Part shown: positions 21,908 through 31,611 of the stretch, one piece after another
Numbering within the stretch: the first letter of the stretch is position 1
How the letters are laid out: the number at the start of each line of letters is the position of its first letter
From: Catajapyx aquilonaris
Taxonomy: Eukaryota
DNA length: 64,000 nt
Assembly: GCA_000934665.2 (NCBI GenBank)
Contig: KZ538016.1
Span: 62,001-126,000 of the forward strand
Direction of reading: 5' to 3'
Translations under genes and position numbers: made by a program
The notes under the pieces: model-generated
Told to the model about the DNA's origin: nothing
The model's database searches: none
The model's input: only the letters and a program-made list of their open reading frames with translations

Positions 21908-23507
21908 TCATTTTTTAACACTACAAAAAGGAGGTTAAATACATGCGCATGAAATGTTTTAAAATAAATTGTTCATGAATTTTCCTTCACTCGAGTTGTA
22001 TCCATGTCACGAACTACACAAGTGGCATGTTACTTTGGCAGATACAATAGTGCTCAGCCAGCTTTTTTGATCAGAAGGATTGCATGGTGTCTTTTTTTTT
22101 TTTGGTCTCTTACAAAAATTAAGTGTGCACCTGATGGATTTAGGGCATATGAACACATGACCACCCAGATGTTGCGGCATTTGCAGTGAAAATGATTCTT
22201 TGTAGCAGTGATTTTTGGTACTGGGTGAGCAACATCTGGACAGTCCAAACCACAACTTCAGGACAAATACACATCGTCATGTGCATCATTTGTTCTTTTT
22301 TGGAGCACGATACAGCCAATGAAATAAAGCTTACTGCACCCTTTTCTCTTTTTTTAAACTACACAAGCCATGTGATTTTTACGTGTCACTACACCTACAA
22401 TAACCTCTGGGTGACAAGGGGAGTCTGCTGGGAGAAGTGACGTTTGCATAGAACTGAGGAGAGGAGTCGGGTTGGCCTGGCCAAAAAGCAAGTCGTAACT
22501 CAAGGATCTTCAGACGCTGTGCCTATCTCCCAAGTACGCTAACTATTTCGCTAACTGACAAAAACGCCAGGCACCACTCTGTAATAAAGCAATGGAAATT
22601 GCTGCCGTAGCCAGCACTTGTCGTAACTGATTCCGCAACATTTGTTAACAGGCGTCTTCTAATGTGATAGCCCACAAAACCCGGCGTGTTTGCACAAGAA
22701 ACCCACCCTTCAAAGAAAAATAAACCAAAATATTAAATCTGGAATGTATTGAGATGCTGCTTTGCACCTTAAGTAAAAACACAACAAGTACGTAAATGCA
22801 ACTGTGCAACCTGATGAGCAACTGCCGACAAAAAAAAATTAAAGACTGACATCATACTGAGCATTATTGGCCATTGTGGCATACGTGTGACACTACTGAA
22901 AAGGTGGTACGTTTCCCCTCTTGGAATGTGGGGTGCGAGATAAAATGAAAAACTCCAGATTTGCCTAGACTCTAAACTCCGTATCTCACCCGAGGAGAGT
23001 AATCAAAAAGGCAAGGCATCTGAGAGATGAGCTCACGAGCTGCCAAATTACACTTTGGCATCCAGCCGGCGGAAGAAACCACGACATGCACAAATATTAA
23101 AATACATTCTCCGCTATGATTCATCTCACCTACTCATTTGTTCTCTCATCGCTCTCTCTCACTCTCAGTAATACTACCTGAACTAAGCTTTAATACCCTT
23201 TCTTAAAGGAATGTGTACCAAGTCACTGTTTACAATAATAATACATGACAATATTGGAATGGGAAAGAGGTATTAATACAATAATAATAATATATAACAT
23301 TAATGTATTCATAATTAAATACTTGTGAATCTCGGTGTAATGAGGGAAAAAAATATAAATGAAAATTGTGCATCCCGATTATGGAAGTGATGGAGGAAAA
23401 AGGCACCACTATGGACAAAATGTATAGAAAAAGCAACTCATCATAAGCTGTGTATCACAATATTTTTCCCTGTGACTACTAACTCCTCAGTTATCATATT
23501 CTGTTAC

Positions 23508-23558
<51 letters not shown>
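23508..23558. repeat. (AAT)17 microsatellite in the aPKC 3' UTR
   Basis: Perfect trinucleotide run read directly from the sequence. Confidence 0.95.
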
Positions 23559-23811
23559 TGGACATCTCTTTTGAATATGCTACTTAAGAAATTATAGACA
23601 GGGGAAAAGAAATATGCCTTGACTGCACCATGTGATATGACAAGGCTAATAGCTACCTCTAAAGCGACTCATGTGTAGACACAATAGAAAATAAAAGGGT
23701 TAAAGCAAATTGGCAAAGAGGAAGAGGAAAGACTTCTGAAGACGAGAGTGGGGACAAGGCAGCAGAGATGCGTTGACAGAGTAATTACTCCTTCAGAGAT
23801 TTTGCATCTTT

Positions 23812-23899
23812 TCACACGCAGTCCTCCAGAGACATGAGCAAGGGATTCACATACTCGAATCCTTCAAATTCCGACTGGTCGATCTTCTCTATCACTCGT
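23812..23899 (-). CDS. aPKC: aPKC terminal coding exon [28 protein letters not shown]
   Basis: 88 coding nt; acceptor CTTTCAG; TGA stop at 23812-23814; hydrophobic motif with Glu and a PDZ-ligand-like C-terminus. Confidence 0.98.
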
Positions 23900-26800
23900 C
23901 TGAAAGTAAAAGGAAAGCTGGTTGAGACGGTCGTAAAAGAGTGTGGTAAACTACGCAATGTGGGTTCGGTGTAGTTAAAGCAGTGCTGACCAAGGCCATA
24001 ATATGACCTATGACAGGTGTACAGGGTGAAGATATCACTTACCTTCTCCCATGAACATGACCCAATTTTGGATAACCTTTCAAAACCTTCAGGAGTAGCT
24101 AAATTTTAGCGTACCCTTCCACAACTGGACCCGAAATGGGGCAATGAAACATACAGCACCAACTTACGGATCATCAGGAGTGAGCTGAACTGGCTCCTCA
24201 GTGAACTCGGGAGGGAAGTTGGCCAAGTCATGTTCAGAGTCTAGGCGAGGTTTGTACGGAGGTATCACCTGCCTCTGCTCCAGCTATGGGTAGTTTGGTC
24301 ACGGATCGGGACAGGTGAAGGAGGGGGCGGAAAAAAAATAAAAGGACAAGTGTGAAGGCATGCTTGCACTTACGAGTCATCAGGTGTGAGCTGCACTGGT
24401 TCCGAGGTGAACTGGGGATCAAAGTTTTCCAGATCCTGATCATAGTCCAATTTAGGTTTGAAAGGAGGGGGGATATGTTTCCTCTCCAGCTGCAAGGAAG
24501 AAATGTAGACAGACCACGCCACAAGCACAAGGTAGGAAGGGAAGAGGAATGCACAGGGTGTCAAGCTAACATCCAACACAAGTGAGACTACACACATAAT
24601 GGCACATGCAGTGGTGTCTCATCATTAGTCGAGTTATCACAGCAACTCTATTTTCAGCCCCCACAAACAACACACTTCCAAATGTTACTGAATAAGAGAG
24701 TTAAGGAAATTAGCTGTTTCGTTGATGTTTGCAACTTATTTGATATTTCATGACAAATTTTTTAAAAGCCATAGCCGCTGTTGTAACCAGAGGACAATTA
24801 AAATGGCTAAGCCAATGTAACCTTATGTCAAAAATGCAAATTTATGACAATCCCACCCATTTTTGGGGCAACCCTGCATTTAAACATTAATAAATTTACC
24901 AATGAACGTAACTGTTATTGCAGTTATCTATGACATTAGTGCGAACAAACTGGTAGTATACTGAGTCAGGTTAACTCTGTGAAATGAATTATTATGAGCA
25001 GCACATAATGATGAGTCAACACAAGTGTGATGGTAACACAAAACAATTAGGATAAATCATGCACGAACACACACACACACAAAGTTGTAAGCCATTCAAT
25101 GTTAGTAATGGGATGTATGTTAAATTAGGCTGACAATGTGACAACACTGACACACAAAGGATATGAATTTAGGGAAAAGTGGACTCTTTTCAAAAAATTA
25201 ACTTAAAAAAAATTGTCAAAATCCAGCCTTGTACCAGTGCAACTGCAAATCATAATAGAAGCATTTGGGCACAAGCAATAGTAAGTGACAAAGAAATTTC
25301 TTTTCATGTTACATTCTCCTACCTCAAGGTTATCAGTAGATGTTGGCCAAAAAAATAGCAATTTCGAAATAGTGTCCAAATTTTTTTTGTCACTTAATTC
25401 AATTGGACCACATTGGACCCAAAGGCAACAATATTACACTAATAAATCCGTATATGTCGTCTTAAGCTTAATGGAGGAGCAGAAAAAAAATAAAATGCAA
25501 TGAAAATGCATTGTAAATAAAAATTCTTGAAACAGCTCTGGAAAAGTTTCATGTTGAAAAAATTGCGGCACAAAAGGCTCACCAGCTCCCAGTCAATGCT
25601 CTTGAAGAACGGGTGGTGCATAATATCAAGGAATCCAGTGTCTTGGTGGCACCCCAGGCGGTCAGCTGGGTTCTTGTTGAGAAATCCCTTCAGGACGGAG
25701 GCTGCCTTCACAGACAGGGAGCGGGGAATTCGAATCGTCTTCTCCAAAATCACTGCAAATCACAACAGAGGACCCTTGACTAACAGAACTAGCAGGTTTA
25801 ACTTCCTGCACATTTTTTTTACTGTTGGTTGTGAACAACAGGCAAGAAAAATTTGATCAGTGTATCACTTTACCTTGGAACAAGTAGTCTTCAGTGTTTT
25901 GATCTGGATTCTCCGAGGCTCCAACAATATCAAACGGACTCCTTCCAGCCAACATTTCATATAGAAGTACTCCAAGGGCCCACCAGTCCACACTGCATGC
26001 ACACACAACACATGATTAGTTTAACATCACAATATCATTCACAGAAACAAAGCAAACAGAAAATTTTATCTCCTGCCATGTTAGTTACATGAGTTCATAA
26101 CAAAAAATGAAATAAATAATTAAATGCCCAGCATATTGGATGCGCATTGCCATTCCATCACACCAAGGGCAATGGAAACGTGAGCATAATAAACCCAAGT
26201 CACAAACAGTGGAATTTCTCAGAGCCTGCCTGGCCTTGCCATGCCCTACTGGGATGCCCTACATTGTTTAAATTTAAAAAGCACTAAGCATTATACCAAC
26301 TGTGCAGACCAGATATGTTATGTGCTTCAATTCTGGTTCCTAGTTAAATATTGTCCGACATCCTGGAAACTAGCCATTTACAGAACATCTTTGTGAACAA
26401 TATATTCCATTACAGGGATATGTTCCACTCGATTATCAATGTGTGCCCCAGCTATCTAAACTAAGCTTTTAAAATTGATTGCATTAAAGTCAAGCCCAAG
26501 TAAATTAACCCCTTGCAAACAACAAATCCACTGGTAAAGCCATGCTAAAAACACTAACTTGTACGTCTCTTTTACAGGCTTGAACACCTTACTGATCTGT
26601 GGTGGTATAAATCATCCCCTGGTAAAGTGTAAGAGCCATTTCTTATTGACAATCATGCCTCAAACAGATATAGTCTAACTTTCATTGATGGCACAATATC
26701 TGAACACTCGTAGAGACAGTGTGAGTTAACACTTGTTACACTTTACTAGCATATTGCAACTAGTATCCAAATAAATTCAAGAAAGAAATCCCAGAGGACT

Positions 26801-29696
26801 TTCGAATGCGTCTCTCGTCTCACACTTATTCACTTGTTAGGGTTCTCGCACTCACAGCACAAGTTCTCACACTGCATGTTAGTTCGACTCAATCCAGACT
26901 ACATGCTTCATATCACATATCTGCTAGCAAGTGCCCCTCTCCTCTGAGAGACATGTATCTTACAAAATTTTATGAGTACAGCAAAATGTTCACCTGAATC
27001 CATATTCTTCGCCCCTGAGGATCTCGGGAGCAATGTAGTTTGGTGTCCCACAAAAGGTGGAGGTGGTGTCTCCTAGTCGAATTCCTTCCTTGCACATGCC
27101 ATAATCAGTGAGCTTAATATGGCCCTCATGATCAAGAAGAACATTGTCCAGCTTTAAGTCACGATATATGATTCCTGAAACACAGAAGTGCAAGATTTTA
27201 GAATATCTTGTCACCAATAATAATGTCAATGCCATACTGAACAGGAGCAAAAACATACCTTTCTCATGGAGAAAGTTTAACGCCAAGCTAATCTCTGCAG
27301 CATAAAACCTTGCATGTTCTTCTGGTAGTCGCCTCTGCCGCTGCATATGGAACATGAGGTCTCCACCTCGAACGAACTCGATCACAAAGAACAGGCGACT
27401 TGGGGTTTGAAAGCAAGAATGCAGTCCCACCAGGAAGGGGTGGTTTGAAGCTGTCTCAAACACATGCTTCTCGGTCTGAACCCAGTCAATATCCTGAAAT
27501 CAAGCAACGCCATATTAGAAATAGGTCTAATGTCAGAGGAAAACCATCTTAGAGCACCTCACATCATCCTGAGGTCTTTCCACCACAATTACTGATCAGA
27601 AATAATCCTCACTAAGTTATACTCGACTCAATTTGCCAGAAATGACAAAAAGTTGACAATTTGCACAGTAATAAAGCTTTCATTTTTGAAGGTAGCACGT
27701 ATTAATATTCAGTTGTCAACAAAGTCTAATGTGCTTCATTTGCTGTTAAGTTCAGTGGTACGGTAACATCAAAACAACAACTTGACAGTGATTTTTTTCC
27801 TCCTCCAGCAAGGCACCAAAATGGATGGCAAAGATATCTTACAGACGCTGAAACTCCTGAATTCTATCAACAAATTCTATTCTTGGAAAGTAACTTTTTG
27901 TGAACACTGCACTGTAATAGTGATTTCGCTTTTTCCCCCCCATCCAAGTAAGTTTGCTGCGACAGAATATTAACATGTTTGGGAAAATGATAAGGGATTT
28001 CTTCTATAACGTAACTTCTACAATCTAAACTCAATGTGTCTTTTGCTGAAACTTTTCCCTCGTCCCACGGGGATCCCAAAAATAACAAAAGTTTTGCAGA
28101 TGCCCAAGAGGAGGGAAGAAGTCCTACCTCATCATCAGTTACCAAGGCCTTCTTAATGACCTTCATGGCGTATATCCTCCTTGTCTTTTTCAGTTCCACC
28201 ATCAGCACCTTTGCATAGCTGCCACGTCCAATCACCCGGATGAGGTCAAAGTCGTTCAGAGAATACTGCCGTTGGGTACCAGGTTCCAGTGCTTCTTCAG
28301 CTGAAAGGGAGGGCAACACAGTGCAAACAAGCCATGCAACTTAAAGACTTGGTGGCAGGGCAAGGGTAAACAGGGGTTTTAAAAGGGAAGGTCAATTACC
28401 TGCCTTACTTTCATCCACTGCTACAGATCCAGTGGTCTGCTCCAGAGATTCGTCGATGACATACTTGTCTAAAGAAGGTGGCTTCGGGTCTAGGTCTGCA
28501 AGAGGCAGGTTGATAGAATATGAGTGTTGAGGTTCTTCAGAACCAATTGACTGACAGTCAATCACAAGGATAAAGAGGATATACATCAACTTTGGCCAAG
28601 AGAGGTTTCAAAGCAAATACGGTGTACTCCACTACACACTCCACAAGCACGATCACATAAAAACAGTTATAAGACCTTTTTGTACAAGTAACAGATTCAC
28701 ACCACGTCTAAATAACCACTCCACACACTTCTCTCTCTCTCCCTCTCTTTTCAGCATTCATACACTTGGACAAACACGTGATCTTACAAAATCAAGGACG
28801 TTACTGTACAAAGAGGTCATTTCTGCCTATTGACACAAAGTCTCACCTCCGTCTACTTTGCTAGCATCAGGACAAGTTTTGAAGGGACTCTGTTCACCTG
28901 GTGATCGCTCCTCTCTTTTCCCTGCCAACGGAATGTTTGCTTCTACATATACTATGGCAAGGTCTTTTTTTTAAAAAAAAAAATCAAGTTCTCTTGTGTG
29001 GGTGGATATTAAAAACAAAACTTCAAGGGGCAGAAAAGGAAAAAAACTGCAAGACTAACCACTACAGGCCACATCCAGGTTGTCACCATTCTGCCTCCCT
29101 CTTTCGTCATAGGTTGCTGCTACCTGCTCACTATTGCAGGTGATCTTAACCAGCTTGTGACATTTCTTGTGCACCAATAGCTTGCACTGGATGCACTTGA
29201 AGCCCTGCCTGCCCAGCCCCCATATCCGATCATGGCAGAAGGCACAGAAAGCACGCTGAATGGAGGAAGAAAGTGGGCATTAAGGGCCATGAAACATTGC
29301 AGGCACTTTGCAGGTTCCTCCCAAGACACCTACTCTATTGAAACGCTTGGCCTGAAAAATGTGGCCGTTAGCCCTGTAGAGCTTCCTCCACCTCCTGGCG
29401 CCTCGTCTGTATATGCTTCCTGGAAAGTAAATATTTCAGTATTAGGTTCAGGTATTTTGCGCAAGCTGCTTTGCAGCACTACTACTCTCAATGCCTCAGC
29501 TTAAAAACAAATTTGCATGTGCTAATTTGACAGCGCATCGTTTCATTAAAGCTCACCAACACCGCTTCCATGGGAGCACTTTTGGTAACATGGGGTTAAA
29601 ATATTGAGCTACTTTTGACCCTCCCTGAGAAACCTTGGTACTTACTGTCTTCTCCCTGACATGGCATGCCGGGTGCAGGAGGAACATTGGGAAAAA
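23812..29696 (-). CDS. aPKC: Atypical protein kinase C (PKC iota/zeta family), multi-exon, 5'-partial (main PB1 exons not in window)
   Basis: The exon chain 29646-29696, 29334-29419, 29060-29255, (28847-28921 or 28942), 28400-28495, 28128-28300, 27259-27493, 26994-27174, 25874-25992, 25583-25752, [24374-24489 or 24168-24283], 23812-23899 is phase-consistent with GT-AG introns. aPKC hallmarks are present: pseudosubstrate [13 protein letters not shown], a single C1 domain, [27 protein letters not shown], turn motif LTPDD and a Glu-containing hydrophobic motif FEGFEY. Confidence 0.98.
24168..24283 (-). CDS. aPKC: aPKC C-tail exon, variant [39 protein letters not shown](P)
   Basis: 116 nt; acceptor CCCATAG, donor GTAAGT; phase 0-2; 24 of 38 residues identical to variant A by hand alignment. 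Confidence 0.92.
24374..24489 (-). CDS. aPKC: aPKC C-tail exon, variant [39 protein letters not shown](S)
   Basis: 116 nt; acceptor TTCTTCCTTGCAG, donor GTAAGT; phase 0-2; contains PPxKP, NFD and the turn motif. Confidence 0.9.
25583..25752 (-). CDS. aPKC: aPKC kinase C-lobe exon [16 protein letters not shown]...[11 protein letters not shown]
   Basis: 170 nt; acceptor TTTGCAG, donor CTG|GTGAGC. Confidence 0.97.
25874..25992 (-). CDS. aPKC: aPKC kinase exon [39 protein letters not shown]
   Basis: 119 nt, translated by hand (not in the ORF track); acceptor GCAG, donor AAG|GTAAAG. Confidence 0.97.
26994..27174 (-). CDS. aPKC: aPKC kinase exon: catalytic and activation loops, [10 protein letters not shown]...DYGMCKE...[12 protein letters not shown]
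   Basis: 181 nt; acceptor GTTTCAG, donor CAG|GTGAAC. Confidence 0.98.
27259..27493 (-). CDS. aPKC: aPKC kinase exon [13 protein letters not shown]...LNFLHEK
   Basis: 235 nt; acceptor ATTTCAG, donor AAG|GTATGT. Confidence 0.97.
28128..28300 (-). CDS. aPKC: aPKC kinase N-lobe exon (glycine loop [16 protein letters not shown])
   Basis: 173 nt; acceptor TCCCTTTCAG, donor GAG|GTAGGA. Confidence 0.97.
28400..28495 (-). CDS. aPKC: aPKC hinge exon, (D)[31 protein letters not shown]
   Basis: 96 nt; acceptor CCTCTTGCAG, donor CAG|GTAATT; phase 1-1, open and in frame with the kinase exons. Confidence 0.75.
28847..28942 (-). CDS. aPKC: Candidate aPKC hinge cassette exon (...[25 protein letters not shown])
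   Basis: Good donor GAG|GTGAGA. Two possible acceptors give 96 nt (from 28942) or 75 nt (from 28921); both are stop-free and phase 1-1. The peptide itself is not recognisably conserved. Confidence 0.55.
29060..29255 (-). CDS. aPKC: aPKC exon: C1 zinc finger, [36 protein letters not shown]...DVACS
   Basis: 196 nt; acceptor TTCTTCCTCCATTCAG, donor G|GTTAGT; C1 Cys/His pattern. The 3' boundary is less certain than the 5' one. Confidence 0.92.
29334..29419 (-). CDS. aPKC: aPKC exon: pseudosubstrate and start of C1, [28 protein letters not shown]
   Basis: 86 nt; acceptor CTTTCCAG, donor GTAGGT; canonical aPKC pseudosubstrate. Confidence 0.97.
29646..29696 (-). CDS. aPKC: aPKC exon: end of PB1 and linker, (V)[16 protein letters not shown]
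   Basis: 51 nt; acceptor TTGCAG, donor A|GTAAGT; phase 1 at both ends. Confidence 0.95.
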
Positions 29697-31611
29697 CTGC
29701 AATCAAAAACGAAGCGAAAGGATGCATGAGTTGCAGAAAACATGACAAGGCAAGACCTTGAGTCTTTTTAAAATTTCTCTGACTCCATCTGGCCCAGCGA
29801 GACAGAATTTCACGGGGCAAATATTACCTACTGTCACCGACTACTTCTGTCTTTACAAGCAAAAAAGCTACAGCTTCAAGCCAACTGCATTAAATATAAC
29901 TGATATCAAGTTCTCAAGCCTGGCAACATGCTGTGGCTCAGAATATACAGTGCAGGCAATAAGCTGCAGGCCTTTCTAATGGGGGTTCAAGTTTCAACCC
30001 TCTTCGTCTATAATCAAGATTTCATTTTCAGTTGGGGATTTACTGGCAGTGGGCCACCAAGTGGTGTTCGTAAAACAAATGGGGGCTACAAGCACTTGTT
30101 CTCTTGCCTTATTATTCCACCCCCAGTGAAACTATTAATTCTCTTGTTTCAAGTGGCCATTCGGCCCACAATGCTTCAAGTCTGGCTCTAGTTGACTTCA
30201 TGGGCAAAGCAAATAGGGCAGTCAAGGACATATAATAACCGTGGTGTCGGGTTATTATCATAGCACAGTGCATTTAGGAACCTATGAGGCCTACAAGGGG
30301 CACCTATGCTATAAATAGGGTGTTTACATAATGATTCAGAAAACATTGGGAGTGAATTCCTGGTAATCTTCATTATGTCAAGATGTAATTTGGTTTCCAC
30401 ATACTGTCCCCTCTAAATGACACTCGAAATAAAATGCCCAGAAGTTCACCCTCTAGTATGTCAGTATCACTATAAAACACCCTGGAGATTCTACACATTC
30501 ATCATGTCAGTAAGCTATGGAGGATCACCATTCCAGGGAATCTAGCCTCCCTCCCTCCTCTGGGACTTCATTGTAATAGTGTTACCAATGCATGATTTAA
30601 TGATTAGCTGGCTCATTCATGCGACAGAGAAAATTCCATGTAATCTGCGAGTCAATTACTCAAATGGATAAAAAATAAAAAATAAAGCCTCGTCTCTGCA
30701 GCCATGCAGATGACCCGCCAGGACCTGTCAAAGCCATTAATTGTAACCGACAGTCACACCGGATAAATTTTTTAAAGGCATAAGCGAGCAACCATTTGCA
30801 AGCATGCCGATCTCATTGTCAGCTGCATGAAGCGAATTAGAGGCAAGGTATGGATCATTACCACAAAAAAAGCAGGTCCCTTCCAGGGGATGGCAATTTG
30901 AGAGCCTCCTGTGGAGGATCCAAAGGGCACAATAAACCAAGGAAACTGCAACCCATCTCGATCTAATCCGCTCCTTTTCTCAACCTAATCATCCATCCTC
31001 TGAACGTAATGATCCTTCTCAGAGCATGAGGCCCGTATAAGAAGGCAACTTGGGGAAAAGCTTGAGAACAGAACCACCTTTCCCTCATTTCCCTGCTTTT
31101 GCACTTGGTATTGATTCAGTGCAGGAAGACTATTTAACCTCCCGTGGAAATCAGCTTGACTTTCCAATTTGGACGGGGGCTCGGCTCCGTCGGTCGTGGA
31201 TCACAACCTCTAGTACGTGCGGGGATCAGCCCCGATTGTTCCAAGTACAAGTGTTCCTACCACACCCTAAAACCTGTAAAGCCGACGTATGAATAAATAG
31301 CAGGGGCATGTTCCTTATACCTGCGGTCGTCCGCGATTAAGACCCAACCCCTGCTGGGGCAATCGATTTTCATAAGGAACATTGTTTCGGCCACGATGCT
31401 GCAGTTCGTTACGTGCATGTTACGCAATATTTCCCTCCCTTCCAAAATTACGGTTTATTCAGCTGCCCCAATAAATATTTTCGATGCCGCATCGCGCGTC
31501 GCATCCCACGTCAACTATACTACTCTTAAGAATATATGGGTAGAGTGTGTGGGGGTTGTGTGGGGGGTGGGTGTCACAAAGAGTCCCCCGACATTGTTGT
31601 CCTGTCCTTAC

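Follow-up and report, generated by a model that had tools for sequence, protein, structure and literature searches.

Does the atypical protein kinase C (aPKC) gene of Catajapyx aquilonaris encode one carboxy-terminal tail or two? This question is raised by a 64,000-nucleotide stretch of contig KZ538016.1 (assembly GCA_000934665.2, positions 62,001 to 126,000), referred to below as the window, in which two similar exons lie next to each other on the minus strand near the 3' end of the gene. A preliminary description of the window had proposed that these exons, here named A and B, are mutually exclusive and provide the kinase with alternative tails carrying NFDPQFT and NFPPEFT, respectively. The analysis reported here indicates that the two exons are very probably a tandem-duplicated, mutually exclusive pair in the pancrustacean aPKC gene, giving two full-length kinases. 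In each transcript, either A or B would be spliced between the exon ending in ...IDWEL and the last exon, and the two resulting kinases would be distinguished by 14 of the 38 residues encoded here, in the C-terminal tail that is typical of AGC kinases.

What the two exons look like can be read directly from the window. Exon A (24489..24374, minus strand) encodes the ancestral-type tail ENFDPQFT, and exon B (24283..24168, minus strand) encodes the derived, pancrustacean-type tail ANFPPEFT. Both are 116 nt long and run from phase 0 to phase 2, both open with CTGGAG and are followed at their end by a GTAAGT donor, and neither contains a stop codon when the reading frame of the upstream exon is continued. 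The alternative exons are separated by an intron of 90 nt (24284..24373, minus strand; GTAAGT...ATAG). The intron upstream of exon A is 1093 nt long (24490..25582, minus strand) and has no contig cover, and the intron downstream of exon B is 268 nt long (23900..24167, minus strand). In an ungapped alignment of the two peptides, 24 of the 38 residues are identical and 31 are positive (E 2e-17; BLASTP, single comparison). At the nucleotide level, 80 of the 116 positions are identical, with the differences distributed 9/9/17 over codon positions 1/2/3. The similarity ends at the splice signals, and the flanking sequences are unrelated. The Pfam profile Pkinase_C matches each exon separately, with 28.0 bits for A and 30.6 bits for B at a curated cut-off of 20.9 bits. 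A third copy was not found in the whole 64-kb window when both peptides were used in tblastn searches, the next best matches having E values of 0.2 or worse. The exon pair is real and lies far beyond chance, and the details with which it had been described in advance (two homologous exons of 116 nt, the same phase, intact splice sites, no stops and 24/38 identical residues) were all correct when checked.

The two acceptors are built differently. Exon A is preceded by ...ttccttgcag, with a strong pyrimidine tract directly before the AG, and exon B by ...ctacccatag, where a purine-rich stretch stands directly before the AG and the pyrimidine run lies farther upstream. On account of this purine-rich stretch, the acceptor of exon B may be the more regulated of the two.

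Can both exons be used in the same transcript? All combinations were joined by script from the window sequence, using the upstream constitutive exon (U; 25583..25752, minus strand) and the last exon (D; coding part 23815..23899, minus strand, with the stop codon at 23812-23814). Exon U encodes a part of the kinase domain, its translation ends in ...FFKSIDWEL, it is followed by a GTGAGC donor, and it is the donor exon for either alternative exon. The combinations U+A+D and U+B+D give full tails, both ending in ...SLEDCV*. Inclusion of both exons (U+A+B+D) leads to a stop 6 codons into B (...DDSWSRGR*), and skipping of both (U+D) leads to a stop after 11 codons. A complete kinase is therefore obtained only from the forms with one exon. 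As the exon length of 116 nt cannot be divided by 3, the reading frame alone makes the two exons exclusive at the protein level. The pair shows what is looked for in a tandem duplication: the homologous exons lie 90 nt apart, agree in length and phase, and have separate splice sites. Given the early stops, no complete product can come from transcripts with both exons or with neither. The exon ends at 25583 and 23899, which the preliminary description had placed on either side of the pair, are as it had them, and the end at 23899 and its joint to 24374 are confirmed by a spliced contig. The proposed mutual exclusivity is also supported: the frame breaks with both exons or with neither, the contig contains A without B, and 11 isoform pairs in relatives show the same choice.

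Other ways of enforcing the choice were also considered. Exclusion by steric hindrance was rejected, as the intron between A and B measures 90 nt, which is longer than minimal arthropod introns. Docking and selector RNA pairings were sought as inverted repeats in 23880-25600, and nothing rose above chance. In total, 13 inverted-repeat pairs are present. Of those that reach into an exon, the best has 16 nt with 88% complementarity (24418-24433 with 25537-25552), which by a rough estimate is about at chance level. It would pair the central part of exon A with intron sequence some 30 nt past the donor of the upstream exon.

Evidence from RNA of this organism comes from a single public run that matches the locus. 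The kind of this run is not on record; it consists of contigs, comprises 32 million letters and behaves like a transcriptome over 22800-26000. Three of its contigs lie on 22800-26000, all at least 99% alike to the window, and they contain two joints, both GT..AG on the minus strand. In contig record 2 (417 nt, no mismatch), 23599-23899 is joined to 24374-24489, which means that the last exon is joined to exon A and exon B is skipped. Contig record 3 covers 25583-25752 and 25874-25995 and contains the joint 25752>25874. It also has 6 letters beyond 25583; both alternative exons share their first 6 bases, and a branch of the assembly at this place would be compatible with the presence of both forms, although no conclusion is based on this. 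The A form thus exists as RNA in this organism. Of the four junctions whose counting had been proposed, 24374>23899 was seen in the contigs of this one run, and 25583>24489, 25583>24283 and 24168>23899 were not seen among them, which is a blank. Contigs drop rare variants, and exon B is probably also used in this organism.

Is the pair restricted to Catajapyx? The tail motif was classified in every aPKC protein that was fetched, and where only one type is reported below, this concerns the annotated proteins and not the content of the genome. In 11 of 11 tested isoform pairs, all differences between the two isoforms fall within one block of 32-41 residues at the position of exon A/B; their prefixes are identical, and pairs of unequal length share an identical suffix of 28 residues. 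With the A-type isoform named before the B-type isoform, these pairs are X8 and X7 in Penaeus vannamei, X1 and X2 in Homarus americanus, X3 and X2 in Periplaneta americana, X6 and X5 in Bacillus rossius, X3 and X4 as well as X1 and X2 in Aedes aegypti, X4 and X5 as well as X1 and X2 in Drosophila busckii, X1 and X2 in Drosophila hydei, X3 and X4 in Drosophila montana, and X1 and X2 in Teleopsis dalmanni. Further A-type isoforms are present in Anopheles, Culex, Malaya, Culicoides, Musca, tephritids, Nilaparvata, lice and Cloeon, and A-type isoforms are also annotated in the Drosophila nasuta group and in D. arizonae/mojavensis.

In addition, multiple public gene models run through both exons. 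Such run-on models were found for the insects Gryllus bimaculatus, Timema cristinae, Aedes albopictus, Frankliniella fusca, Frankliniella occidentalis, Periplaneta americana (ANN_05011), Drosophila busckii and Cloeon dipterum (CAB3365230), and for the crustaceans Homarus americanus, Penaeus chinensis and Armadillidium vulgare. Exon A stands before exon B in all of them (11/11). These models are annotation errors, yet they show that both exons are present in the A-then-B order in those genomes. Bacillus rossius X2 and Nilaparvata X3 and X4 have frame-shifted tails that agree with the last exon as it would be read, out of frame, after both exons are skipped. These isoforms may come from unproductive splicing or from errors in the models. 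The 90% aPKC clusters also hold oddly named members without the kinase tail, such as a 'putative lysozyme-like protein' of Teleopsis, an 'NF-kappa-B p105 subunit-like' protein of Tenebrio and a 'splicing factor, proline- and glutamine-rich-like' protein of Ochlerotatus.

Only one of the two types is annotated in a number of groups. Only B is found among the listed proteins of Hymenoptera (15/15), aphids (15/15), a calyptrate cluster (15/15) and Daphnia (15/15), and among the annotated proteins of Lycorma (9/9 with a tail) and Caligus. Only A is found among the annotated proteins of Folsomia (5/5 with a tail), Allacma and a barnacle. The non-pancrustaceans that could be named, which are a horseshoe crab, ticks, mites, a centipede, a millipede, molluscs, the brachiopod Lingula and a sturgeon, have A only. 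Variant A is of the vertebrate and outgroup type NFD.QFT, as had been stated in the preliminary description, and variant B carries the motif that had been called fly-type, which is seen in isoforms E and F of Drosophila melanogaster. The contrast that had been implied, with a Catajapyx genome that keeps both tails and flies that have only B, does not hold, as A-type isoforms occur in Drosophila, Teleopsis, tephritids, Musca and mosquitoes. The A/B pair is a general pancrustacean condition, flies included.

How did the second tail arise? A tree was made from 49 exon-sized segments, comprising 20 B rows and 29 A rows, with the type labels assigned from the motif. When all columns are used, the 20 B rows, including exon B of the window, form one clade with a support of 99/97. 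Exon A of the window is 82% identical to the A-type segment of Folsomia and 79% to that of Strigamia, and exon B is 84% identical to the B exon of an aphid. The A exons of the window and of decapods are 76-79% identical to the centipede sequence. Over the 12 taxa that have both exons, the mean pairwise identity is 58% for A and 84% for B. The dipteran A exon is the most diverged of the A and B exons: it has 40 codons instead of 38 and is only 40-50% identical to the outgroups, which suggests relaxed or redirected selection on this exon in flies and mosquitoes. Purifying selection has probably acted on both copies in the window, as is suggested by their conservation (82% and 84%) and supported by the 9/9/17 differences over the codon positions. 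Exon B is the conserved copy with a derived motif, and exon A is the copy that keeps the ancestral motif, evolves faster and is free to drift in insects.

Most likely, the NFPPEFT tail goes back to a single duplication of the exon early in pancrustacean history. This is inferred because the order is constantly A and then B, because the length and phase are equal, and because B is found only in the named pancrustaceans and differs from A in three differently fixed columns. The suggestion that the fly-type tail had originated by exon duplication fits this distribution, with B in the named pancrustaceans only and A before B in 11 of 11 cases.

Some results weigh against this account of two working exons with a single, ancient origin, and they also mark the places at which other explanations can be set. 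In the single run from this organism, no contig covers exon B (24168-24283), which is a blank and not evidence either way, and no contig forms a bridge from 25583 to A or B. For the relatives, most of the isoforms are RefSeq/Gnomon models obtained by computation. The cluster that contains D. melanogaster has 66 members, and the 15 that were listed are all of the B type, with no A-type isoform of D. melanogaster among them; a region search with the A exon of D. busckii gave back only that exon from 3 candidates and is uninformative on this point. When the eight motif columns are left out of the alignment and 30 columns remain, the free tree search splits the B rows (3 changes), so that most of the case for a single origin comes from the motif itself and the exon order. 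The blank at exon B would be explained if only exon A worked in this species and B were a silent, intact-looking relic, which also fits the joining of A to the last exon in the sole run and the weaker polypyrimidine tract directly before the AG of B. We consider this very improbable, however, because the exact length, the phase, the AG, the GTAAGT donor and the open frame are all kept, and because exon B carries each of the three residues specific to B and is still 84% identical to its counterparts in insects, after hundreds of millions of years of divergence; a neutral stretch of 116 nt would not stay so conserved. The sole run is also small (32 million letters), and its contig form favors the loss of rare variants. 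That the tandem copy is an assembly artefact has practically no probability: nothing was found in its favor, and an assembly duplicate is ruled out by the 36 of 116 bases at which the copies disagree, by their unrelated flanks and by the presence of the same pair in many independently assembled genomes. Such an artefact, shown by read mapping, had been named in the preliminary description as a possible refutation.

The behavior of the tree without the motif columns could also point to independent duplications that converged on NFPPEFT, or to gene conversion, instead of one ancient duplication. The B rows are not one clade once the motif columns are removed, and the A exon of Bacillus is nearer to exon B of the window (71%) than to exon A (67%). 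The 30 motif-free columns alone, however, cannot decide the monophyly of B: a constrained tree that keeps the B rows together passes the test (p-AU 0.57) and even has a log-likelihood better by 0.91 units. On all columns B is one clade at 99/97, three columns are fixed differently between 20/20 B rows and 29/29 A rows, A precedes B in all 11 run-on models with the same exon length and phase, and the high conservation of B (84%) alone explains why a fast-evolving A may look nearer to B. Separate origins are therefore given only a slight chance next to a single duplication. A further explanation places the main role of the pair in regulated unproductive splicing, by which truncated transcripts or transcripts targeted by nonsense-mediated decay would set the dosage of aPKC, and the difference between A and B would be secondary. 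Double inclusion and double skipping do both reach early stops, and public models with shifted tails exist (Bacillus rossius X2 and Nilaparvata X3/X4), but these models may be annotation noise, and the long retention of three type-specific residues in both exon types suggests that both proteins matter. This explanation is held to be very unlikely, and the tandem pair of two productive exons is the reading that is followed below.

Which protein is modified by the pair? The gene encodes an atypical protein kinase C, an AGC kinase of the PKC iota/zeta/aPKC group, as judged from its sequence matches. The best named matches of exon U are insect atypical protein kinases C with 92-93% identity (Gryllus, Periplaneta, Timema and Bacillus), and no protein with 100% identity is present among the matches listed. 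The coding part of the last exon comprises 28 residues and is 100% identical to the aPKC of Bacillus rossius. Upstream aPKC exons, with C1-like and kinase-domain pieces, were located by tblastn with full-length aPKCs at 25874..29715 on the minus strand, with matches at 29715-29611, 29417-29019, 28301-28128, 27496-26996 and 25994-25875. The region 29417-29019 is matched by the C1 and pseudosubstrate region of three aPKCs, which is a similarity only. The Pfam profile Pkinase (PF00069) matches at 26993-27499 with an E value of 9e-34. In the kinase domain, many insect orders share 84-86% of the residues with the window; the values are 80-83% for decapods, Daphnia, collembolans, myriapods and a horseshoe crab, and 79% for a tick. 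These identities mark a pancrustacean that is most like insects and are too even to single out an order. For the PB1 domain, tblastn searches with residues 1-86 of three aPKCs that possess it found no match in the window at E below 1e-3; its exons may be short or lie beyond the matches at 29715. The 3' untranslated region extends at least over 22800..23811 (minus strand), with contig cover of 22800-23495 and 23599-23899 without mismatch. A repeat is present in it at 23498-23566, and the contigs appear to be cut there, which matches the gap in the cover.

Both spliced forms contain LTPDD and FEGFEYVNP, which correspond to the turn-motif Thr-Pro and to the acidic hydrophobic motif F-E-G-F-E-Y. 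An acidic residue in the hydrophobic motif is described for atypical PKCs in a section of PMC10903481. Exons A and B both align without gaps to residues 530-567 of human PKC iota (full-length chain, 9ejk), which bears out the earlier assignment of the segment to the AGC C-tail. Along this alignment, in the human numbering, N551-F552-D553 is the NFD segment, T557 is the threonine of F-x3-F-T and T564 is the turn-motif threonine. The swapped block therefore carries the PxxP stretch, the NFD segment, the F-x3-F-T motif for interaction with TOR and the turn-motif Thr-Pro.

What does the choice of exon change in this block? Both types keep P-P-[FY]-x-P, F-x3-F-T and L-T-P-D-D, the last with rare exceptions, and in the window both versions keep P-P-[FY]-K-P and N-F. 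Three positions around N-F are fixed differently. The position before N-F is Ala in 20/20 B rows and E, D, T or C in the A rows, with Ala in 0/29. Directly after N-F, Pro is present in 20/20 B rows and Asp in 29/29 A rows. Two positions farther on, B has Glu in 20/20 rows and A has Gln in 25/29 and Glu in 0/29. According to PMC12687424, structures with bound ATP show the phenylalanine of the NFD motif in contact with the adenine ring, and an outward flip of the segment is possible. The TOR-interaction motif (TIM) adjoins the turn motif, is a target of mTORC2 and aids the maturation of PKC and Akt, as described in part of PMC10903481. The swap exchanges the residues that frame the adenine-contacting phenylalanine, and this phenylalanine, the two phospho-acceptor threonines and PxxP stay in place. 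The two isozymes would then share substrates and partners and may differ in the closure of the tail over the nucleotide pocket, and possibly also in the ease with which the tail is primed. The switch may tune the active-site tether, through the nucleotide pocket, maturation or partner contacts, and would not abolish activity. The preliminary description had proposed that it could affect ATP binding, TORC2 priming or the behavior of the PAR complex.

Comparable systems are known. The RefSeq aPKC isoform pairs of other Pancrustacea have the same gene, the same exon position before the 28-residue tail of the last exon, the same A-then-B order and the same NFD.QFT versus NFPPEFT alternatives as the window; they are unnamed computed isoforms. 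The Diptera differ from the window in that their A exon is two codons longer and 40-50% identical to outgroups, whereas exon A of the window is 79% identical to the centipede. The same device, in which one is chosen from adjacent homologous exons of equal length and phase, is used in the arthropod Mhc clusters, Dscam and 14-3-3 zeta. In contrast to these, the window has only two alternatives, its inverted repeats gave no docking/selector pairing above chance, and the frame alone can explain the exclusivity. In vertebrate PKC beta I/beta II, splicing alters the AGC C-tail (V5) next to a shared catalytic core. There, one of two terminal exons is used, and with it the turn motif, the hydrophobic motif and the extreme C-terminus are replaced. 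In aPKC, an internal exon is swapped instead, and the hydrophobic-motif exon is shared. In JNK (MAPK8/9/10), the duplicated internal kinase exon 6a/6b is swapped with the length unchanged and a functional surface altered. JNK belongs to another kinase family, and its swap concerns a substrate surface of the kinase core, whereas that of aPKC concerns the AGC tail.

Has this pair been described before? A genome-wide survey of mutually exclusive exons (MXEs) in Drosophila was reportedly made by Hatje and Kollmar in 2013 and may list the aPKC pair. No published description of the pair was found in full-text literature searches, which did not cover the supplements of PMC3228551 and PMC12464824. The main text of PMC3228551, on MXE prediction, contains no mention of aPKC. 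In PMC12464824, on Angel wing, aPKC is named among the Anw-dependent splicing targets that were tried as mini-genes, and the event itself is described only in the supplement. Tandem clusters of mutually exclusive exons can be conserved across Metazoa, as parts of PMC3912159 and PMC12464824 indicate. The pair is visible in databases and apparently undescribed, and it uses a well-known splicing device with no new mechanism.

As a tentative proposal, with somewhat less than an even chance of being correct, the pair may be a two-way switch in the active-site tether of aPKC that has been kept for about the age of the Pancrustacea, in which the form known from flies is the derived NFP form and the ancestral NFD form is an unstudied second isozyme. 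The NFD-form exon (A) is the one that was assembled in the only available transcriptome of this organism. At a practical level, at least eleven public gene models are flagged as wrongly fusing both exons. With their three fixed differences around the ATP-contacting phenylalanine, the two types also offer a natural, testable pair of variants of the AGC active-site tether. The PAR polarity system has aPKC as its core kinase, and Drosophila is the main model for it. If the proposal is true, the fly aPKC of almost all polarity work is the NFP form, which does not have the otherwise invariant Asp of NFD. If the two tails differ in nucleotide handling, in priming through mTORC2 and the TIM or in partners, then isoform-blind genetics of aPKC in arthropods would have averaged two enzymes.

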